Positions 6,358-62,404 of a stretch of 64,000 nt of DNA are shown here, in pieces. Each line of letters begins with the position of its first letter. Position 1 is the first letter of the stretch. Under the pieces are notes generated by a model. That model did not search any database and was not told the DNA's origin. It saw only the letters and a program-made list of their open reading frames with translations. Source of the stretch: Callorhinchus milii (Eukaryota); assembly GCF_018977255.1 (NCBI RefSeq), contig NW_024704742.1, positions 33,606,001-33,670,000 on the forward strand, written 5' to 3'. The position numbers were made by a program, and so were the translations under genes.

Positions 6358-6652
6358 GGAGTCCTGTAGCTTAGTGGTTAGAGCACTCGCCTCGCAAGCG
6401 AGAGACCTAGGTTCGATTCCCGGCAGGATGAAACCTTGGGCAAGTTTCCTTACTCCACATGCCTGTTAATAATCCCTCAAGAAAAAAAAATAGTCACTTC
6501 AATTCACGACTGTTTATGGGACATTGCTGTGCGCAATTGGCTGCTGCATTTCGCCCACAAATATACAGTCAGTTCACTTTACAGCATATTCTCTGAAACG
6601 CTTTGAGACGTGAAAAGCGCTATATCAAATGCAAGGATTATTATTATTACTA
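6358..6652 (+). mobile_element. tRNA(Ala)-derived DeuSINE-like SINE
   Basis: A box TAGCTTAGTGG, B box GGTTCGATTCC, core GCTGTGCGCAATTGGCTGC, tail GCGCTATATCAAATGCAAGG(ATT)n. Confidence 0.85.
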
Positions 6653-18076: not shown

Positions 18077-18486
18077 AGTCCTGCAGCTCAGTGGTTAGAG
18101 CACTCGCTTTGCAAGCGAGAGACCTGAGTTCAATTCCAGGCAGAGGGCGAAACCTTGGACAAGTTTCCTTACTCCACACACCTAATAATAATCCCTCCAA
18201 AACCAAAAACAATAATAAATTGGTCATTTTCAATCTACGACTGTTTGTGGGACATTGCTGTGCGCAATTGGCTGCCGCGTTCGCCCACAAATATACAGTC
18301 AATTCATTTTACAGTGTGTTCTGTGAAGCGCTTTGGGACGTCCTTCCGACGTGAAAAGCGCTATATCAAATGCAAGGATTATTATTATTATTATTTTACA
18401 GTGTGTTCTGTGAAGCGCTTTGGGACGTCCTCTCGATGTGAAAAGCGCTATATCAAATGCAAGGATTATTATTATTATTATTATTA
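18077..18486 (+). mobile_element. Young tRNA(Ala)-derived DeuSINE-like SINE with duplicated 3' tail
   Basis: Full head (CTTTGCAAG anticodon-like loop) and core, followed by two successive TTTTACAGTGTGTTCTG...AAATGCAAGG(ATT)n tails. Confidence 0.9.
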
Positions 18487-31180: not shown

Positions 31181-33034
31181 AAGGGTTTAACACTAATAGG
31201 AACACTAACCTGAGATATTTTGTGTGTGTTTACTGGGATGAGATAGACAAGAAAGAGACAAAGGAAAAGCACATTAATGGACAGAAAGCAACTTTGCTGT
31301 TGTTTTTAATATTTTTTGATATAATCCCCACATCCCAGGATACTCTTCTATAAATCCTGGGATTTTGGGAGCATCATTAGCGTATGGGATCCCAGGATCT
31401 GGATTCTCAGGATTTCAACCCCTGGATAAAACATTAATCCGAGGCCTACTAAAAATTCCATGATACCATTCAAAAGAGAAGGGAGAGTTTATCCCAGTGT
31501 CTTGGCCAATAATCTGCCAGCTAAAATTGGTCATTTCATGGCTGTTTGTGCGAAATTGCTGTGCAGAAATTGGCTGCCACATTTGCCTACAATTGTTATG
31601 CTTTATAGTAAATCCTGTGAAGCTCTTTGAGCTATTTCAATGGAATGATAAAAGGCGGTGCATTTTCCAATGCATAGGTTCTTCTTATTATTTTTAAACT
31701 AAGGACCTGGCTATGTGTTCAGGTGGATGTTAAAGATTCCAAGACAATAGGTGGAAAGAGAAGGGAGTTTCTCCTGGTGTCCTGACAGGCAATACTCCAG
31801 ATGAAATTAATCATTCTCTTCATGGCTGTCATGCCTGTTTGTGGGACAAATTGGCTCTTGTGTTCCCTACAAATGTAGCCACTACATGTACAGCAATTAC
31901 CTTTGAGACATTATTGCACCAAAGAATGATTCTGGAGACTTGTAGTTTAGTGATTAGAGCGCTAGCCTCACAAGCAAGAGGACCTGGGTTCAATTTCCAG
32001 TAAAACAAAACATTGGGCAAGTTTCCTTACTCCACGCGCCTCTGTTTACCAAGCAGAAGGTAGGAACTCGGTTGTTAGTCGATTGGTGGATCGGTTTTCC
32101 GGGGATAATAATCCCTTCAAAAAAAATTACCTCTGAGTCAGAAAATTGTGGGTTCAAGCCCCACACCGGACTTGGAACTCATATCATCTAAGATGATGCT
32201 CACTAAATGGCTGTTGTGGGACATTGCTGTGCACAACTGGCTGCTGCATTTCACTCACAAAATACAAAGTATATTATTGTTATTATTATTGGAACCAAAC
32301 TGACACTTTAACCTCAGCTCTGCTTAAAACCTTGATAACTGATATTTCTGTGCTTCCTTTATCAATTCATAGCCTAGGAATTTAGTTATCCCGAGGCCAA
32401 AGCAACTGACATACGACTATCTCGGTTTATGCATGTTTCATGTCAGGAATGTGTGGAATGCCTTTAAATTCAATTGACTTTGGCACAATGCACAATGCTA
32501 ATTAGATTGAACTAATCCCATCTCTGGGTAGATGATGGACACTTAAGTCTCGCATACATCGTGCATTTTTCTAATGGGACTCAAATGGGTAAAGGAACTG
32601 CTTGTATGCATCCTCATTAACAAAACAGCAGTATCTTTCAGTGTCATCTCCTTTCTGCTGCCCTATATTTACTATGTAAATACCATTCTCTCCTACTTTT
32701 ATATTAACTTGATTCAATTCAGTCTATCCAACAAGTCTAGGTTTTAACTTATTTATTACTCATTTGTCAACATATCTGAATGGATTAAATTCCAAAATTC
32801 CAAAGAGCAAGCTGGTGATATTGAGTCCAGAGTCCTCTCACATCACATAATTGGCCGGCCAAAATATGCAGATACCTCAATTTTATTTGGTTAGCTAGGT
32901 ATCTGACACATGTGAAACCCATCACCAAGCTTAAGAGTATCTAAACCAGAGTTCTACATTTGTATACTACCTACAAGTGTCTAGAATGGAATACACTCTA
33001 CTTACCTAATTCCAGAGGGCATCACACATTTTGT

Positions 33035-33390
33035 GTCCTGTATCTTAGTGGTGAGGGCACTCGCCTCGCAAGCGAGAGGAGCTGGGTTCGATTCCTGGCA
33101 GGACGAAACGTTGGGCAAGTTTCCTTACTCCGCACGCCTCTGTTTACCTAGCAGTTAGTAGGAACCCGCTTGTTTGTTGACTGGTGGATCGCTTTTCCGA
33201 GGGTAATAATCCGTTTTTAAAAAAAATGTGGTCACTCAATCAACGACTGTTTCTGGGACATTACTGTGTTGAATTGGTTGTAGCGTTTCACCCACAAAAT
33301 GTAGCCAATTCACTTACAATATAGTCCGTGAAGTGCTTTGGAACGTCTCAAAGATATAAGGCGCTACATCAAATGAAATTATTATTATTA
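33035..33390 (+). mobile_element. tRNA-derived SINE inserted in a family X copy
   Basis: Head with GGGTTCGATTCC and an (ATT)n tail. Family X sequence lies on both sides (32885-33020 and 33390-33520). Confidence 0.75.
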
Positions 33391-41803: not shown

Positions 41804-42129
41804 ATAATAATAATAATAATAATCCTTGCATTTGATATAGCGCTTTTCACGTCGGGAGGACGTCCCAAAGCGCTTCACAGAACACACTGTAAAGTGAATT
41901 GACTGTATATTTGTGGGCGAACGCGGCAGCCAATTGCGCACAGCAATGTCCCACAAACAGTCGTAGATTGAAAATGACCAATTTAATTATTGTTTTTGGT
42001 TTTTTGGAGGGATTATTATTAGGCGTGTGGAGTAAGGAAACTTGCCCAAGGTTTCGCCCTCTGCCTGGAATTGAACTCAGGTCTCTCACTTGCAAAGCGA
42101 GTGCTCTAACCACTGAGCTACAGGACTCC
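41804..42129 (-). mobile_element. Young full-length tRNA-derived SINE
   Basis: Complete head, core and (ATT)n tail; near-identical to the copy at 43285. Confidence 0.9.
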
Positions 42130-43284: not shown

Positions 43285-43608
43285 TGGAGTCCTGTAGCTC
43301 AGTGGTTAGAGCACTCGCTTTGCAAGCGAGAGACCTGAGTTCAATTCCAGGCAGAGAGAAACCTTGGGCAAGTTTCCTTACTCCACACAGAGCTCTAATA
43401 ATAATCCCTCCAAAACCAAAAACAATAATAAATTGGCCATTTTCAATCTACGACTGTTTGTGGGACATTGCTGTGCGCAATTGGCTGCCGTGTTTGCCCA
43501 CAAATATACAGTCAATTCACTTCAGTGTGTTCTGTGAAGCGCTTTGGGGCGTCCTCCTGACGTGAAAAGCGCTATATCAAATGCAAGGATTATTATTATT
43601 GTTATTAA
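43285..43608 (+). mobile_element. Young full-length tRNA-derived SINE
   Basis: GGAGTCCTGTAGCTCAGTGGTTAGAGCACTCGCTTTGCAAGCGAG head through to the (ATT)n tail. Confidence 0.9.
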
Positions 43609-46838: not shown

Positions 46839-47079
46839 AAAAATAATAATCCTTGCATTTGATATGGCGCTTTTCACGTCTTCTAAATGTCTCAAAACGC
46901 TTCACGAATATACTGTAAAGTGAATTGACTATATTTGTGGTGAAATGCGACAGCCAATTGCACACAGCAGTGTCCTACCAGAGTAAGGCAACTTGCCCAA
47001 GGTCTTGCCCTGCTGGGAATCAAACCCAGGTCTTTCGCTTACCAGGCGAGCGCTCTAACCACTGAGCTACAGGACTCCA
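46839..47079 (-). mobile_element. tRNA-derived SINE with internal deletion
   Basis: Head and tail present; middle shortened. Confidence 0.75.
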
Positions 47080-52093: not shown

Positions 52094-52392
52094 TGGAGTC
52101 CTGTAGCTTAGTGGTCAGAGCACTCGCAAGCGAGGCACTTGGGTTCGATTCCCGGCAGGGCAAAACCTTGGGCAAGTTTCCTTACTCCACATGCCTGATA
52201 ATAATCCCTCAAGAAAAAAATAATAAATTGGTCACTTCAATCCACAGCTGTTTGTGGACACTTGCGCAATGGCTGCTCTGTTTTGCCCACAAGTATACAG
52301 TCAATTCACTTTACAGTATATTCTGTGAAGCGCTTTGAGACATCTAGAAGACTCGAAAAGCGCTATATCAAATGCAAGGCTTATTTATTATT
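52094..52392 (+). mobile_element. tRNA-derived SINE
   Basis: Head with GGGTTCGATTCC, core and tail. Confidence 0.8.
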
Positions 52393-54031: not shown

Positions 54032-54923
54032 ACAGCCAGAGAGCCAGCAATGCTCTTACTGTTGCAATCCTGGCACAAACCAGGCAGAAAGATGTCCTCT
54101 CTAGGAAACCTGCTGTTCTGCACAAATATTTGTCCGCAGTCCACAGCCATTTTAACCCAAGCCAAGTCTCATGTTGTGCAGACTCAAAGCAAACGGACTT
54201 TAATGAAGTAAGGAGTGTTGATGATCACAGTAAATGACCTAACACTATTCACAAAAGATTGGTCTGAAGCTGCAAATGAAATATAAAATGGGACTAAAAT
54301 GCACTCTGTGCAGCTCAGCAAAAAATTTATGTTCTCGAATTGTAATAATAATTTGATGTAGCACCTTTCACCTCAGGACGACATCTCAAAGCTCTTTGTT
54401 CAACAATTTCTCTCAGATGGCAAGGGGATAATCAGTAACTCACCACATGAAAAAGCATCCCATTGTTCTTTGGCACAATGCATGTACTGTTGCAAATACA
54501 CATTGGAAAATCAGGTTTCTCATGAGATAAAGTGCTTGTTGGATAGGTTCCTCCATGGCTCCGTGAGTTTATTTAGCGAGTAGTTGACCTGCACAGAATG
54601 TGGAAGGTTCCAGGGTGCTACAATTCAAAAAAAATCAGCTAGACTATACATACACTGTTCGTTATCTAGTAACCCCTGCTGAGGGCAAGGATCAACCTTG
54701 GTTGGGACCCCCACTCCTGCTTTCATCAAAACACATACAAATATACATGGTCAAGCTCACATCTTGGGCAAGATAATGGAGCGTATTGATGGAATCAACC
54801 GTGGTAGTTGGGAGCGGTTTGTCAAATGCCTTCATGAGAGAGGTACAGAAAAAAAAGAGGAAAAAGAAATGGTTGCGAACAGTTTGGGTAAAACTCACAG
54901 GGGATGGATTCAAAGATACTGAC

Positions 54924-55078
54924 CTTTACCATTTTCAAGTTCCTGTTTGACTTTGTCTGTCACCTCCATTGTTTCACCCTCATTTTGCTGTTTGATTTGT
55001 AACATTGTTTTCTTGAGATTGGACATGCTGGCCTTCTGTAGTTTTAAGTATTCCTGCTTCAAATCTATCCACTCTTTC
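54924..55078 (-). CDS. LARP7: LARP7 exon
   Basis: CACAG|...AAAG|GTCAGT, 155 nt, [29 protein letters not shown]... (human [29 protein letters not shown]). An in-frame alternative donor lies 6 nt earlier. Confidence 0.93.
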
Positions 55079-55729
55079 CTGTGAAAAAAATACATAAAAA
55101 GGATTATTCGTATCATCACAAAAAATATCTATAATTCTATGTTGTGGTGTCAATAGATTGGCAGGAATTTTCAATTCTTCTGTGAAGTTTCTTCCCGTAC
55201 ACTTTTTCCCCCTGAAACGATGGTGGGATGTGGGAGAGTCAAAGGCCTTCAAGGAAGATATGGAAAAATTGGCACAAAGTATAACAAGATTAGAGCTTGT
55301 GAACACTTCACCCTGTGTTGGACTTTTCGACACTCCAGTGTAGTGATGTAATACAAAATTAGATTCATCTTTTTGTTCCACACCACAATGTGCTTAACAC
55401 CTGTACAATATATATAAATGCAGGTTGTTGTTATTGCATTTAACGCTAACATGTGCAACTGAGAAGTTCAGACAGGATCATCCTCGAGTCATTTTAAAGC
55501 AGAGCATTTTCTACTGTTTTAGTTTCAGAATACAGCATTCCACACCAATAAACATTTTATCCAAAGTACACGAAACAACGATTTGTCAAATAATGGATTG
55601 CAACCGAGGAGTTTCTCTCTGAAACGTTTCAAACTAACGGTTTCTGGGAGGAAGCCAGTTTGCAAGTGAATTTTCACCCTTGAAAAACAGTTTAATAGTT
55701 AACTGGAAATGTTCAGAATAATAGCTAAC

Positions 55730-55993
55730 TGTGCCACATTGTCTACAAAAAATTGTGTGTTAATGTATCATTGTGCAGACTATCTAATGCCATTGAACAA
55801 AAGCAGGAATTGAGAAAGGCCCTGGGTCTTCTTGTGATGGCTCTAAGTTCTGCCATTTACAGCTTGTTAACATGCTAGCACCACCCATTGAGGCAAACAG
55901 ATTTAGATACACCAACTAGACAATGGAAATGCAAATGACCGTCCCCTTAAGAAAAGGTGCCTAATTAAAATCAGAGGATGAAAGATATATAAA
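55730..55993 (+). promoter_or_regulatory. Putative promoter of the miRNA cluster: Sox motifs, octamer and TATA box
   Basis: ACAATGG at 55920-55926 next to a perfect ATGCAAAT at 55929-55936, several CATTGT/CATTGA/AACAAAAG motifs at 55735-55895, and TATATAAA at 55986-55993, about 220 bp upstream of the first hairpin. Confidence 0.6.
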
Positions 55994-56211
55994 TATCAGT
56001 GACTGAGAAGTCACAGGGAACAGTAGCCTCGAAGACCAGATGGATCGACAAGGATGACGTAAGTGCAAGCATGTAGCAAGCGTTACTTGTATTTTTAGGT
56101 TGTGTGTTTACCTTGGGGTTTATACAGTTGGGAGTTTGTAACTGTGATCCATGGAACCAGAGTTTGGATTTCATCATTAACTAGAAGGAGCAAAATCTTT
56201 TTGTGTGTCGC

Positions 56212-56278
56212 CTGCTACGTCAACATAGAAGCCTTTCTGTGATATAATTGAGTAAGTGCTTTTATGTTGAAGTGGCAG
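56212..56278 (+). ncRNA. MIR302: miR-302-family pre-miRNA copy 1 (3p UAAGUGCUUUUAUGUUGAAGUGG from 56253)
   Basis: The 5' arm CTGCTACGTCAACATAGAAGCCTTTCT pairs with the 3' arm. Seed AAGUGCU; both arms resemble tetrapod miR-302. Confidence 0.9.
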
Positions 56279-56744
56279 TGGGTGCTTGATTCTTCATTTT
56301 AAAACCTTCGCTAGTGCCAACATGTGTTTCTTGTCTTGTTATTTTTCCACAAATTCTTGGGGGAAACTTTTAGCAAGCAAATGCCCTTGTGTATTTATTT
56401 CAGTGCTTTTCTTAAAGTAACATTAACATGGTGCTTAAAATTTCAGGTTTACGCCAATGCAGAAAAGGAGAAAAAAAGGATGTACTAAAAGTTGGACCAC
56501 CGTTTTAGCCAGGCATTTCTGTTAAGCGAAATTTCAGCAAGTGTTTTATTTTATGCGATGCTGTGTTTCTATATTCTGCAATTTTAATTTTGAGGTATTT
56601 AATTCTAACTTGGATGCTTTTCCAAGTGGGGTGACTGCTTGGAAACCCAATGTGGAGTTAGAAGCAACAAGTAGATTGCTTATTCTGCTACATATATACT
56701 TTAAGAGCAAAAATATGAATTGTTCTTTCACCATAGCACCTATG

Positions 56745-56815
56745 GTGTACCACCACTGCGATCGTGCAATGCTGTTTCTCTGTTCTGGTATTGCACTTCA
56801 GCAATGGTGATGCAC
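56745..56815 (+). ncRNA. MIR367: miR-367 pre-miRNA (3p UAUUGCACUUCAGCAAUGGUGA, 56789-56810)
   Basis: Two differences from human AAUUGCACUUUAGCAAUGGUGA; the 5' arm CACCACTGCGATCGTGCAATGC is complementary. Confidence 0.92.
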
Positions 56816-56942
56816 TGTACAGTACCTTCATTCTCCAATGCAACACTGGTGTGTCATTTTGTGAAAAATAATCTGGATTGTTGGTAAAGGAAATTGTACT
56901 ATTTTCTCTGCTCCCTTTTTCCCTCCCAAACCTTAAAAAGCC

Positions 56943-57002
56943 ACCTTTTACAACGTTATTGATGGCAAGTGGCTAGTTGCCATCAATAACGTTGTAAAAG
57001 GT
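56943..57002. repeat. Perfect 26-bp inverted repeat with 8-nt loop
   Basis: ACCTTTTACAACGTTATTGATGGCAA-GTGGCTAG-TTGCCATCAATAACGTTGTAAAAGGT. Confidence 0.95.
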
Positions 57003-57230
57003 ACATGAGCATGTATAGAATACTGGAATTTTGCATGTAATATAATTTCTTCTAAATGTTCTCTTATTTTAATGAGCTTTCCAACCTTACTGCCTTGTTA
57101 CGTATCGATACAGCAGTTTTAATGAGAATGTTTTTCACTGTAAATTTGAGAGCCTATTGATCTGGATGGTTTTAGTATGATGCATTTAACCAAAAGGTGT
57201 GATGGCCATAATGCAAAATTCAGTGCTGTT

Positions 57231-57299
57231 ACTAGTTACTCTCAACAAATGAGACTTGCTGTTGAGTCACGTAAGTACTCGTATGTTCGGTTCTCTAGT
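57231..57299 (+). ncRNA. miR-302/430-family pre-miRNA copy 2, seed variant (3p UAAGUACUCGUAUGUUCGGUUC from 57272)
   Basis: AACAAATGAGACTTGC pairs with GTAAGTACTCGTATGTT; basal pairing ACTAG/CTAGT. Confidence 0.7.
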
Positions 57300-57348
57300 T
57301 TACAGGTTTGGTATGCACACCCAAGAAATGTTTTGAATTTGTGTTCTC

Positions 57349-57415
57349 CAGCTCGCCTAACAGTAAAGCCTTCCTTTATAAGGATCTAGTAAGTGCTTTT
57401 CTGTTAGGGAAACTG
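57349..57415 (+). ncRNA. miR-302/430-family pre-miRNA copy 3 (3p UAAGUGCUUUUCUGUUAGGGAA from 57390)
   Basis: CCTAACAGTAAAGCCTTCCT pairs with AGTAAGTGCTTTTCTGTTAGG. Confidence 0.85.
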
Positions 57416-57781
57416 TAGAATGCATTCTCATCCTGGGAAGCCTTTTCAAGTGTGTACAATACTCGGCAAGTTTAGCTTTTATTTTCTTAAAATCCTTTCG
57501 TAAGATGCAAGCGCTGTCCTGGTAAATTAGCCAAAGCACAATGCTCGGTTCAATGTTGGTGCTAATTTTAAACTCAATTCTGAGGTGGGATGCTTTCTGT
57601 TTATTCTCTGTAAATAATACTGACCTTTTATGTGTCTTTTCAGACGTTGACATTACTGGTGTTCCTACTGTGCAGATTTACTTCACGCAGAACCTGGTGT
57701 GTTCTGTGCACCTTTATACGAATTCCAGTATACAACTCTACTACAATTCTTCCTCAATTTTAACGTCAATGACCTGTGACC

Positions 57782-57851
57782 TAGTGATCCCGATATGCAA
57801 GTACTTGCTGTATCCAAGATGAAGTAAGTGCTTATCATATTGGGATTTCTA
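57782..57851 (+). ncRNA. miR-302/430-family pre-miRNA copy 4 (3p UAAGUGCUUAUCAUAUUGGGAUU from 57825)
   Basis: GATCCCGATATGCAAGTACTTGCT pairs with AGTAAGTGCTTATCATATTGGGATT. Confidence 0.88.
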
Positions 57852-57921
57852 TTGTAGAACAAATGACCCATTGGTAATTCAGAAAAATCCTGGATCGTGT
57901 TGCCGGATGTTTTGAGCTGTG

Positions 57922-57992
57922 CCAAGAGCTCCCAACATGCTAGCACATGCTGTGTATTGCTCTAGTAAGTGCTTTTATGTTGGGATTTCTGG
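57922..57992 (+). ncRNA. miR-302/430-family pre-miRNA copy 5 (3p UAAGUGCUUUUAUGUUGGGAUU from 57966)
   Basis: TCCCAACATGCTAGCACATGCT pairs with AGTAAGTGCTTTTATGTTGGGA. Confidence 0.88.
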
Positions 57993-58041
57993 AGTCAGAT
58001 GAACTTATTGTGCACCATAAAACGCCGTTTTGTCACGTCCT

Positions 58042-58118
58042 GTGTTTTAGAGCCTCTAACATGTGAGTTCTTGCAACCTTACTAAGTAAGTGCTCCCATG
58101 TTGGGATTTCTAGAGCAT
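58042..58118 (+). ncRNA. miR-302/430-family pre-miRNA copy 6 (3p UAAGUGCUCCCAUGUUGGGAUU from 58087)
   Basis: GTGTTTTAGAG..CTCTAACATGTGAGTTCTTGC pairs with GTAAGTGCTCCCATGTTGGGA..TTCTAGAGCAT. Confidence 0.85.
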
Positions 58119-58370
58119 AGACAAATTGTAAAACTTCTTCCCAACAGAATTTGTAAACTTGTACCTGGTTTGCTTCTTAAGCACTAAAACCTTGTTATTT
58201 AATGCTTTTTGCAATAAAATGTTCTTGTGCTCCAATATAGTTTCTAAATAAAGTCTTAATGCTGCAGAGCCTCTTGTGAAAACTTGCTGCTCTCAGGATT
58301 TCTCCTCTCAGGATTTCTACAGAAGAATCTACAGATGTACAAAGAATTTCATCTTAGGAGCAGCAATAGT

Positions 58371-58448
58371 GTAATTTGGAAGCACCAAGATGGAAGGCTT
58401 GCTGTTTTTATCTTCCAGTAAGTGCTTCATATTGGTGTTCTTAAATGC
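58371..58448 (+). ncRNA. miR-302/430-family pre-miRNA copy 7 (3p UAAGUGCUUCAUAUUGGUGUUC from 58419)
   Basis: AGCACCAAGATGGAAGGCTTGCTG pairs with CAGTAAGTGCTTCATATTGGTGTT. Confidence 0.85.
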
Positions 58449-58545
58449 ACAAATAAGAAGTTATTGGCAAGAAGCCAATCTTTTCATTCTTGTCCTGTAA
58501 ACTGATGATGGAAAGCTGTTGCTTTGTTTCTTGTCGGATTTTAAA

Positions 58546-58551
58546 AATAAA
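58546..58551 (+). terminator. Candidate poly(A) signal for the miRNA host transcript
   Basis: AATAAA about 100 nt after the last hairpin, followed by the T/GT-rich tract TTTTGTTTTTACTTGT. Other AATAAA at 58213 and 58247. Confidence 0.4.
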
Positions 58552-59149
58552 TGGATTTACAACTACGATTTTGTTTTTACTTGTCCACTTTTCACATCAG
58601 ACACTTTTAAAACTTCCCAAGGCGCTTAAATTAGGGAGGTGTTTCAACCCTCTGCAACCAGCAGAGGCCATGCTGTAAATGGGTTCATACTTGTGGTGGG
58701 GTGGAGTGTGTTGGTGGGCGGGGGGGGGGGGAAGGAAAGTGAGGAAGTCAATTGTCCGAAGAGGCCAGGCCTCAGAAGGCACATGCGACAATATTGTCCG
58801 AAGGGAAGGTTCAGCACGAAAAAAGTTTGGGAGCTGCTTGAGCTGCTGGAGGATTGTTAAACCAGGTCTTTTGGATTCTGGTTCGCCATCTTATTTCTAG
58901 TTCTAATTGCACTTCAGCCTTCTACTTCTATGAACTCTTGCATTTTTACTTCTAGACTATATTCTTATAGATCTCGTGGGAGACGTACGGTGAGGTTTAC
59001 TGCCCTGGAAATGATCTGGGGTCTGATAATAAAACACATGTAATCGGTTTTAAAAAATTACACTCACAATTGTTTTGCTGAAATTTTCACATTGCATCCA
59101 AAGCAATAAAAGGATTTACTGTAAAGTGATTCTGGCACAACGTCCCTCC

Positions 59150-59770
59150 GGCCTGCGGGCTGACCACCTAGCTCCCGGTCTCTGCGTGCGCATTGAACCC
59201 TGACCAGAAATGCGCCCTCCCACCCCCGCAGAAATGCTCCCCCTTCTCGGTCCTTCTCTCCCACCACCCTCCTCTCCTGAACCCCATCACTGGCCATCCT
59301 CTGCTCCGGCTTGGCCAATCCTCCACTAGGCCTTGGCACTCACTCTTCTCCCCTAGAGCCAGTTTCCCACTTGCTGACTTTCTCTTCAAAATGTCTTAAA
59401 GCCCTCCTGATCCATGACTCATCCTGAAGGGGAACATGGACATTCTTGGACTCACTGAGATCTGGCTGTCCCCCGGTGATTCTGTCCCTTGATTGAAGCC
59501 CCCACTCTGGATACACCTTTCACTTCCTCAACCTCTGCCCAAACTTCCCCTGGCTCTACTATTCCTCCGGCTCCTTCCCATCTTTTGAACACTTAACCCT
59601 GTACCATTCACCCCCTCTGCTTCAAAATCCTCATTTATTGTCTTCCCAAACCGCCTGGTTTCTTCATCTCTGACATTTTCTCCCTCTGCACTGAACTGAA
59701 CCCCTGATCATAATGGGTGATTTCAACCTTTACCTAAACTCCCCTTGCCCCATTTCCTCTGACTGCCTAT
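59150..59770 (+). mobile_element. Degenerate L2-like fragments (3' end and endonuclease remnant)
   Basis: DILGLTEIWL at about 59440 and GDFN at about 59716 (APE motifs); L2 3'-end-like sequence before that. Confidence 0.55.
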
Positions 59771-60837
59771 GATCACCTCCCCCCTCCCTGATGTTTGCTC
59801 AGCCACTGTCAGTGCTCTGGGACACTACCCTGCATGAGGGGCACTGTAGAGCTGCAAGTTGTTGCTGAAATGATTACCAATTTTTTTGCAGGATACTGGG
59901 AGAAACTCTTTTATGATCGAATAATGCAATGGGATCTTTAACTTCCACAGGCAGACAAGACAGTACCTTGGTTTAACGTCCCGTCCAAAGGATGAACATC
60001 TCTGACAACACAGCACAATGCAGCACCTCACTGGAGTGTCAGCCCAGACTGTATAAATTGAAAGTTCCGACATAGGGCGAGGAGTTCAAAACTACAATCA
60101 TTTTTGTCCTTTCTGTCAATTTCCGACCTTGCAACCTCCCTACCCCCAGCCCTGCATTGTAGTGTCATCTTAGACGATGTGTTCCCATTCAATGAATCCA
60201 TGATCCATGTAAATTCCCGAAATTCACCTTCTCTTCTAGAATTAAAATGAAGATTCAGCTAAACAAGGAACCCAAATTACCTACATCTGAAGGTTTGATT
60301 CTCTTGCCTGTGGGTCCGTTTGATTTACAGGAACTAGCAATGGCTCTGGGGAAAGCAACCATATGTGGTTCACTCAAACATGTTACCATTATCAAACACT
60401 ATAAAAACCCCTGTATTCAGAAATTAAATGAAGATGAATGACATCATAAGCGACACCCAATTGTTCCCCCTACATTGTTCCACCCCGAGGTGGAAACAAT
60501 CGTTTTATTGCCAGTAGATTAACACTGAATTTAGGAGGTTCCCTTTTCAACATTACAGGATAGCTGTAGACTTTACCGTTTCCCAAATAATACTAATTTA
60601 ATTTAGTGCTACAATGGGATATATGAGACCTGTAAAGGTCAAATCTTGATTCCATCAAGTGATACCCTTTCTCCATGGTGAAAAATATGCATGTGGGCAT
60701 CTAATGAAACAAAATTCTCAGGTCGACGATATTCATAGGTGAACAAATGATACATTAAAGCAGTTACCCTGCAGTCTGGGAGGGGTAATTACATTTGACT
60801 AAATTCCCCCCTTAATTGTATGATTAATTTAACTTAC

Positions 60838-60976
60838 TTGGAAAATACTCTGAGAGGAATGACTTCTTCTTCCAGCTTGTGTCTATCCTTGTGTTTCTTC
60901 TTCCGCTTCCTCTTGCTCTTAGACATGGACTCGTCCTTCTTATCTCCAGAACCTCGCTCATCTTCTGTCGAAGCAT
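60838..60976 (-). CDS. LARP7: LARP7 exon
   Basis: CCAAG|...CAA|GTAAGT, 139 nt, [47 protein letters not shown] (human ...[21 protein letters not shown]). Confidence 0.95.
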
Positions 60977-62404
60977 CTTGGAAATAAAATGATCATTTCA
61001 TTTCAAATTTGAGCATCTTCTTAGTTGGCTTAGCCAACAAGTGGTAGAACTGCCAACTTTCTGTTCCAGTAAAAACAACTCTCAGAACTAAACCTCATTC
61101 TTGATTTCGAGTGATTTCTAAACCCTCTCCATGGCTCTGACATCCTTCCTAAAATAGAGTGCGCAAAACGTAGAAATATCCAACAAGCCTAACAAAAATC
61201 CCAACAGGCCTAACCAATGATTTGTACACGTTTAGTACTTATCTCTTAATGAGGGAGATAAAAATAGAGGACTAAGGGGCAAGGATAAGAAGTGGAGGGG
61301 AAAAAAGGAGGACTGATACCTGACCGGGCATAAATACTTGCACAAACATAATAATCATCACATTTTGCAATAGCTGGGCCAAATTGCCTAGTTCAGTGCT
61401 GTGTGATATGAAATTCTTTGCTTCTGTGCACTCGTGCTTCGTTTATAAAATCTAAGACCCCAATTCAATCCACAACTGTTTGTGGGACACTGTTGTGCCA
61501 ATTGGCTGCTGTGTTTCGCCCACAAAATATACAGTCAATTCACTTTACAGTATATTCTGTGAAGGACTTTAGAGATGTCTCGAAGACGTGATAAGGAGCT
61601 ATATCAAATACAAGGATTGTTATAATAGATTTCTTAGTTTAGTCAACTTGCTGTCCCACATTTAAATATTTGAGCATCTGAGCCCCTAGATTTCTTCCAA
61701 ATTTCCTATCATTCCAAAATATTTTTCTGCATTAAAACTTCATCTGCCATCTATCTGCTCTATGAATTGACTCGTCAGCAGCAACTTGCACTTATAGTGC
61801 TTTTCAGGTTGATCAGTATCTCAAAAGTACTTTACAGAACCAGGGGAAACTAGATTAAGTGGGGGTAAGGAAGGAGGTTGCCGAAGGCAAGGTTTAAGTG
61901 GTAAGTATTTAGAAAAGATTGAAAGCAGAGAGGGGAGGTGCAAGGCAAAGGGATTTGGGGAGAGATTTCCAAATTAGGGGAATAGTGGTTTCAAGCTTGG
62001 CCACGAATGGTGGTATTACACTGAAATCAGTTTGAGATGCTCCTTATTTCTGTGTCACCTACAAATATTCGTGTTGTGCCCCTACACCTCCACCTATAAA
62101 ATTTTATGACGGATTTAGGACAAGTCTGAAATGGTCTTTGGATCTGTGATGCATCAAAAAATAATAATTGGGTCACTCGATCGATGACTGTTTGTGGGAC
62201 ACTGCTATGCACAATTCGCTGCTGCGTTTCGCCTACAAAATGCACAGTCACTACACTCCACAGTATACCCTGTGAAGGGCTTTGAAACATCTCTAAGATG
62301 TGATAAGGTGCTGTATCAAATGCAAGGAGTATTATTATTAGCAGAGATGCATCAGTCACCATTATCCATTAGCGATCCATACAGTTTAGAGAAAGAAAAT
62401 TCAC

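Follow-up and report, generated by a model that had tools for sequence, protein, structure and literature searches.

The best-described relatives of the locus reported here are the miR-302/367 clusters of mammals. In human and mouse, miR-302b, -302c, -302a, -302d and -367 are encoded in the first intron of a non-coding miR-302 host gene and lie antisense in intron 8 of LARP7 (bioRxiv 10.1101/497131; PMC4703056). According to these sources, mouse Larp7 exon 9 falls within a 2.1-kb region upstream of the microRNAs (bioRxiv 10.1101/497131), transcription of the human cluster starts 153 nt before its first microRNA (PMC4703056), and the human primary transcript as a whole measures 1974 nt. Here we examine eight hairpins of this kind in the genome of Callorhinchus milii, which occupy positions 56212–58443 of a window of 64,000 nucleotides (positions 33,606,001–33,670,000 on the forward strand of contig NW_024704742.1, RefSeq assembly GCF_018977255.1); the results are those of a sequence analysis of this one cartilaginous fish genome. 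It is highly probable, in our assessment, that the C. milii locus is orthologous to the polycistronic miR-302/367 cluster of tetrapods, and that it is placed antisense in the LARP7 intron that follows coding exon 7.

The resemblance to the human and mouse clusters extends to both content and position. As in those species, hairpins with an AAGUGCU seed on the 3′ arm share a single strand with one miR-367 hairpin, and the group is antisense to LARP7, within an intron of its C-terminal half; the adjacent LARP7 exon (downstream in the LARP7 sense) likewise stands 1–2 kb upstream of the first hairpin, at ~1.1 kb in C. milii. The C. milii locus differs from the mammalian clusters in having seven 302-type hairpins (three of them weak) rather than four, in placing miR-367 second rather than last, and in spanning 2.2 kb. 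The human miR-302/367 hairpins span about 0.7 kb. A further point of comparison is Xenopus tropicalis, in which, as far as the accessible text of two reviews goes, a 302-type hairpin is followed by miR-367 (PMC4703056, PMC7564603), matching the order of the first two C. milii hairpins; only two microRNAs are reported in Xenopus, whereas C. milii carries six more 302-type hairpins past miR-367. The two genomes are also alike in that a LARP7 cluster coexists with a large array of the same seed, which in Xenopus is miR-427 (PMC7564603). The AAGUGCU seed on the 3′ arm and the Rfam clan CL00096 are common to the C. milii cluster, the miR-430 array of zebrafish and the miR-427 array of Xenopus. However, these arrays comprise hundreds of near-identical units, unlike the seven diverged, irregularly spaced hairpins that accompany miR-367 in LARP7.

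The miR-302/367 cluster is a central mammalian pluripotency and reprogramming locus, and both its age and its relation to the maternal-mRNA-clearing miR-430/427 arrays have been inconsistently stated. Gao et al. (2015) surveyed lamprey, zebrafish, Xenopus, platypus, human, armadillo and chicken, and dated the cluster outright to tetrapods (PMC4703056). Haig and Mainieri (2020) reported the cluster to be absent from LARP7 of lamprey, coelacanth and ray-finned fish, inferred a tetrapod origin, and left undecided whether miR-302 resembles miR-430/427 through paralogy or through convergence (PMC7564603). The examined parts of either review contain no cartilaginous fish (PMC4703056, PMC7564603).

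The C. milii cluster is marked by the motif GTAAGTRCT, which has seven exact matches in the window, all on the + strand, and none on either strand outside the cluster (positions 56252, 57271, 57389, 57824, 57965, 58086 and 58418, named W1–W7). Dinucleotide-preserving shuffles (n = 100) gave an expectation of 0.71 ± 0.81 matches in 64 kb, and none of the 100 reached seven; when one mismatch was tolerated, the window showed no enrichment (31 observed versus 22.9 expected). The − strand text of the cluster shows AAGCACTTAC, the hairpins W1–W7 themselves being on the + strand. A sequence-only reading of the window had claimed seven hairpins whose 3′ arms begin GUAAGU(G/A)CU, and all seven sites indeed fold as hairpins with the motif starting the 3′ arm (7/7). 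The seed AAGUGCU is found at 3′-arm positions 2–8 in six of the seven, and W2 carries AAGUACU instead. When the miR-367-type hairpin is included, 16–20 of 22 3′-arm bases are paired in each of the eight, and the inter-arm distance is 13–18 nt. UGU opens the apical loop in 6/8 hairpins, and CNNC occurs 16–18 nt downstream in 3/8. Folding stabilities correspond to z-scores of –2.40 to –7.38, with no shuffle in 200 as stable as the native sequence for every hairpin except W2 (3/200).

Individually, the hairpins are of unequal quality. Four are clear miR-302-type hairpins on the + strand: W1 (56212–56278; 3′ arm from 56253, seed AAGUGCU, z –5.29, 19/22 paired), W4 (57782–57851; z –7.38, 20/22 paired), W5 (57926–57989; z –3.64, 18/22 paired) and W6 (58052–58108; z –6.25, 18/22 paired). 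These four and miR-367 form the secure core of the cluster. W3 (57353–57411, +; seed AAGUGCU, z –5.03, 17/22 paired), which lacks the apical UGU, and W7 (58377–58443, +; z –4.60, 18/22 paired) are weaker miR-302-type hairpins that we regard as probable members. W2 (57241–57293, +; A-variant seed AAGUACU, z –2.40, 16/22 paired) is doubtful, and may be decaying or may have newly acquired its seed. The larger copy number proposed in the sequence-only reading is therefore borne out in part, with four hairpins clear, two weak (W3 and W7) and one doubtful (W2).

The W hairpins have diverged in a manner that preserves their stems. RNAalifold applied to the seven aligned sequences returned 22 pairs, of which 10 show changes on both sides with pairing kept; shuffles gave 4.1 ± 1.4 such pairs (0/500 reached 10), and sliding the partner column gave 0–3. 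Across the W1–W7 alignment, 90.2% of cells are paired. These compensatory changes, together with the high proportion of paired cells, indicate that the stems were retained during divergence of the paralogous W hairpins.

Family membership was evaluated with an E-value-based Rfam search of 3.7 kb, in which only the best family per clan is reported, mir-302 (RF00668) and miR-430 (RF01413) both belonging to clan CL00096. The family returned was mir-302 for W1 (48 bits, E 7.7e-8), W4 (32 bits, E 0.0016), W5 (27.5 bits, E 0.025) and W6 (22.4 bits, E 0.57), all four being significant or nearly so; because only the best clan family is reported, these four hairpins are closer to mir-302 than to miR-430. 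W1 is also the top mir-302 match genome-wide (65 candidates scored). The likeness reaches beyond the seed, in that the 5′ arm of W4 has GUACUUGCUGU in common with the mir-302 consensus, and the 3′ arms of the LARP7 intron read UAAGUGCU(U/C)...AUGUU, which also resembles that consensus.

The miR-367 hairpin claimed in the sequence-only reading is found at 56747–56813 (+), ~470 nt past W1 on the same strand, with its 3′ arm starting at 56789, a z-score of –4.90 and 18/22 bases paired. It matches mir-367 (RF00735) at 33 bits (E 2.6e-4), under the cut-off of 54, and agrees with the 3′-arm consensus at 23 of its final 26 positions. In the whole genome, where 67 candidates were scored and two had E ≤ 10, it is the top mir-367 match.

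The gene on the opposite strand is LARP7. A search of the genome with the Pfam La profile located two − strand exons on this contig, immediately beyond the right edge of the window, and the RRM_3 (xRRM) profile located two − strand exons within the window. The xRRM exon matched only human LARP7 chains in the PDB (3/3 matches), and its best protein match was 'la-related protein 7 [Callorhinchus milii]' (595 aa, 98% identity), with shark and ray LARP7 making up the other 15 of 16 protein matches. The source had been called a probable chondrichthyan from the letters alone, in agreement with this best match, C. milii being a holocephalan. A tblastn search with C. milii LARP7 resolved the − strand gene into 12 coding exons, of which seven precede the microRNA intron. 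Both tblastn and RNA contigs delimit coding exon 7 (60838–60979, −), which precedes the intron in the LARP7 direction, and coding exon 8 (54923–55078, −), which, read on the microRNA strand, precedes W1 by ~1.1 kb. The intron between them (55079–60837, −) comprises 5759 nt, is bounded by GT..AG, and interrupts the K393 codon of the 595-aa protein in phase 1 (...RVFSK/KEW...).

Splicing of this intron is evident in contigs from all three RNA-type runs (X1, X2 and X7; one study), in which 55077/8 is connected directly to 60837/8; this joint is missing from the DNA-type run X3. The RNA status of X1, X2 and X7 was initially a guess, and it is the spliced LARP7 joint in their contigs that indicates that they contain RNA. 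Because spliced contigs cross 55079–60837, the cluster (56212–58443) is intronic and antisense to LARP7, the arrangement originally proposed. The cluster had also been described as lying in a stretch free of transposable elements. Consistent with this, 55400–58640 matches itself alone in the 991.5-Mb genome, save for its own internal inverted repeat, and the depth of X3 is flat at 9.6–9.8 over 55644–58597. Of the elements that the sequence-only reading described as filling the rest of the gene, those seen in the window are eight tRNA-like (SINE-type) matches.

A second group of hairpins with the same seed occurs on this contig. A tandem array at ~39.10–39.19 Mb (C1), on the − strand and 5.4 Mb from LARP7, contains roughly 451 hairpins bearing the AAGTGCT seed, most often spaced 142 nt apart and organized in higher-order units of ~2.3 kb. 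Within a 3-kb piece of the array, 18 of 19 clan matches were to miR-430 (RF01413) and one was to mir-302, and in a genome-wide miR-430 search all 66 of the 66 scored matches fell within the array, 11 of them passing 47.3 bits. Runs of N in the assembly (25 N and 1 N) flank the array at both edges, and its size is therefore possibly understated. A C. milii miR-430 array has previously been described at scaffold level, in a paper whose accessible text contains no occurrence of miR-302 or of LARP7 (PMC10417697). The array is of the miR-430/427 kind, with many tandem near-identical units for which miR-430 is the best fit, whereas the LARP7 cluster is not, consisting of seven diverged hairpins at uneven spacing for which mir-302 is best in the clan.

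This array provides a conceivable source for the intronic hairpins, whose origin would then be independent of the tetrapod cluster: within the chimaera lineage, copies from C1:39.10–39.19 Mb may have entered the LARP7 intron by movement or duplication, the placement being coincidental. Such an origin would draw on some 451 hairpins of the AAGTGCT seed only 5.4 Mb away on the same contig, and could account for the 3′ ends of W4–W6 (...UGUUGGGAUUU), which are similar to UGUUGGGG of the Rfam miR-430 consensus, and for the W4–W6 spacing of 121–141 nt, which is near the 142-nt period of the array. However, W1, W4, W5 and W6 prefer mir-302 over miR-430, whereas 18 of the 19 clan matches in the array piece are miR-430; the array 3′ arms read UAAGUGCUA(C/A)..., unlike the mir-302-like arms of the intron; and the cluster has a miR-367-type companion, the top match in the genome, just as in tetrapods. 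Given that the host gene and the antisense strand are also shared, four simultaneous coincidences would be required, and we consider an independent origin very unlikely. The LARP7 host, the antisense intronic placement, the preference for the mir-302 clan model and the miR-367-like partner instead argue for the orthologous miR-302/367 locus that the sequence-only reading had proposed.

Several observations nevertheless weigh against orthology with the tetrapod cluster, or against the membership of particular hairpins. At Rfam gathering thresholds, the window yields no microRNAs and eight matches that are all tRNA-like, and no hairpin reaches its curated cut-off (mir-302, best 48 versus 55 bits; mir-367, 33 versus 54 bits; the corresponding value for miR-430 is 47.3 bits). 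Sub-threshold scores are compatible with homology in a cartilaginous fish, since the cut-off is an annotation threshold based on the known members of a family. The weaker hairpins score lower still: a 206-base search gave W3 a mir-302 score of 15 bits (E 3), W7 scores 16.7 bits against mir-302, 17.7 bits against mir-427 and 16.9 bits against mir-373 in a 91-base search, and W2, which has a changed seed and a z-score of only –2.4, matched no Rfam clan model even in the 206-base search. The order of the cluster, in which W1 (302) is followed by miR-367 and then by six 302-type hairpins (W2–W7), departs from the 302b-c-a-d-367 order of tetrapods; the order 302b-302c-302a-302d-367 is a mark of the amniote form, not of the family. 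In addition, the host intron is the seventh from the start-codon exon, whereas that of mammals is intron 8; were C. milii LARP7 to begin with a non-coding exon, its intron would count as the eighth and may be the same one.

The remaining points of this kind concern expression. Contigs of X1 and X2 cover portions of the cluster at a depth of 2.6–5.5, which speaks for transcription but is no more than a hint, as the RNA contigs are unstranded, thin and from one study, the runs having been picked for containing the cluster stretch. X7 has the top LARP7 depth (70) and zero intron cover, although gaps in the intron cover of RNA contigs are not evidence on expression. Finally, the searched supplement text of the C. 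milii genome paper, in which small RNA was sequenced from 16 adult tissues, has a miRNA table with no mir-302, no mir-430 and no whole-word mir-367 (PMC3964593).

It is conceivable, in light of the latter result, that the cluster is orthologous to miR-302/367 and has become a relic, either without microRNA output or with only one or two hairpins processed, the miR-430 array doing the AAGUGCU work. The lack of mir-302 and mir-367 names in the searched part of the 2014 table of 16 adult tissues would fit this possibility, as would the changed seed and weak fold of W2. Sequence variation between individuals was also considered. Relative to the window, X3 (DNA of a second individual) differs by 14 substitutions and 2 indels over 55286–58636 (3.35 kb, ~0.4%). 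Two of these 16 variants lie within hairpins (one in the loop of W4, at 57816, and one in the 5′ arm of W7, at 58384), where ~2.4 would be expected from the ~15% of sequence that hairpins represent; this lack of depletion would suit a relic, whereas none of the 16 lies in the eight microRNA 3′ arms, which would not. Overall, the polymorphism comparison over this interval gave no signal in either direction. Entry into MirGeneDB requires read support. Compensatory changes that maintain the stems, the UGU kept at the start of the apical loop in six of the eight hairpins, and the four C. milii genes counted on the basis of MirGeneDB 2.1 (PMC8789304) all speak against a relic, and adult tissue is the wrong sample for an early-embryo microRNA. 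A relic therefore appears to us quite unlikely, and an orthologue of miR-302/367 that would still yield microRNAs is preferred.

By analogy with the human and mouse cluster (bioRxiv 10.1101/497131; PMC4703056), we infer the promoter, processing, expression stage and targets of the C. milii cluster. An intronic Pol II promoter would drive a + strand non-coding primary transcript, and the candidate element is a TATA-like box (TATATAAATA) at 55986–55995, which precedes the first hairpin by roughly 200 nt, as compared with 153 nt for the start of the human transcript (PMC4703056). Together with an octamer (ATGCAAAT) at 55929–55936, this box forms part of a putative promoter and first exon of the + strand host transcript (55929–56058, +), as read from the sequence. 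The octamer carries no statistical weight as a promoter clue, with four occurrences in the window versus 5.65 expected, and without enrichment of this element the promoter and first exon are treated here as candidates. An X1 contig (55712–56058) stops exactly at a + strand GT donor (GAC/GTAAGT, 56058/56059) that was predicted before read mapping, and an X2 contig reads through this donor. The transcript start is predicted near 56015, and an AATAAA occurs at 58546–58551. Drosha/DGCR8 would then excise the hairpins and Dicer would trim them, such that the 3′ arms may yield ~22-nt RNAs, with an AAGUGCU seed from six hairpins and a 92/367-type seed in the miR-367-type RNA. In early embryonic or undifferentiated cells, these RNAs would be predicted to repress mRNAs that carry GCACUU-type sites in the 3′-UTR.

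Other features of the LARP7 introns were recorded in passing. A scan of the host intron for further stable hairpins (filter –26 kcal/mol, with W2 below the filter) gave, beyond the named hairpins, only 56603–56682, 56943–57002 and a G-rich stretch at 58648–58727. The first of these (+), a hairpin located between W1 and the miR-367 hairpin, is moderately stable (–27 kcal/mol when an 80-nt frame is folded) and has neither an AAGUGC seed nor an Rfam match. The second, which separates the miR-367 hairpin from W2, is an inverted repeat whose 26-bp arms match perfectly around an 8-nt loop (–41.1 kcal/mol, z –10.4); it has zero further copies in the genome, and could be either a young hairpin RNA carried by the same transcript or a palindromic duplication of recent date. 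A very high-copy repeat is present at 59653–59863 of the same intron, where X3 depth is 1939 and many contigs break at 59811–59845. The eight tRNA-like matches (37–62 bits), at 6360–6431, 18081–18144, 31936–32008, 33034–33106, 42061–42123, 43292–43354, 47005–47076 and 52097–52163, are mutually similar, lie in LARP7 introns and flank, and are probably the heads of a tRNA-derived SINE (short interspersed nuclear element) family.

Human Mir-430-P1–P4 of MirGeneDB are genes that we take to be mir-302a–d. Peterson et al. include Mir-430-P1 to -P4 in the set of 254 microRNAs that they reconstruct for the ancestor of jawed vertebrates (bioRxiv 10.1101/2021.09.01.458616; PMC8789304). Supplementary File 3 of the 2022 version, which is based on MirGeneDB 2.1, counts four Mir-430-P1–P4 genes in the gnathostome ancestor and four each in C. 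milii, coelacanth and human, the C. milii genes lying on the same paralogon as the human four (PMC8789304). The four C. milii genes are probably the same locus as the LARP7 cluster, although the table counts four where the cluster has up to seven. The 23-nt 3′ arm of W1 found no match in the visible portion of the sequence matrix of that paper, a result that is uninformative on identity with the published genes (PMC8789304). The name 'Mir-367' is absent from the examined part of the supplement, in which the Mir-92 entries are only P1a–d and P2a–d, and literature searches returned no text describing the LARP7-intron locus in cartilaginous fishes. In its Supplementary Files 3 and 4, the same paper places Mir-430-P1–P4 on chordate linkage group Q, whereas its frog gene table places larp7 on group B (PMC8789304). 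Should LARP7 harbour these microRNAs in every one of the species concerned, one of the two assignments needs a second look.

It follows from the orthology that a LARP7-embedded cluster was ancestral to jawed vertebrates, as the sequence-only reading had proposed; this age was already known, being present in the curated catalogue and implicit in the four genes that Peterson et al. (2022) assign to the gnathostome ancestor in the accessible table, and the finding is in this respect a correct re-discovery. What may be new are up to three extra hairpins (W2, W3 and W7, W2 being doubtful), the miR-367 counterpart in second place in the cluster, and the physical linkage of the LARP7 cluster to the miR-430 array on one contig. 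The practical value of these results lies in correction and refinement of annotation, and not in a new kind of system. Nevertheless, the tetrapod dating given in two reviews (PMC4703056, PMC7564603) is contradicted, and the C. milii locus provides direct sequence evidence for an older date. In addition, the genome of C. milii has both a LARP7 cluster and a large miR-430 array, and therefore neither substitutes for the other.

More tentatively, and with rather less than even confidence, we propose that C. milii retains the ancestral jawed-vertebrate state, comprising a LARP7-antisense cluster that includes miR-367 and that lies on the same chromosome as, and just 5.4 Mb from, a miR-430 array of ~450 hairpins. 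If so, miR-367, which is absent from the visible parts of the 254-microRNA list of Peterson et al., would be as old as jawed vertebrates. In that event, W4–W6, in which the 5′ arm is mir-302-like and the 3′ end miR-430-like, would represent intermediates, and miR-302 and miR-430 would be linked paralogues that arose by local duplication rather than convergent look-alikes.

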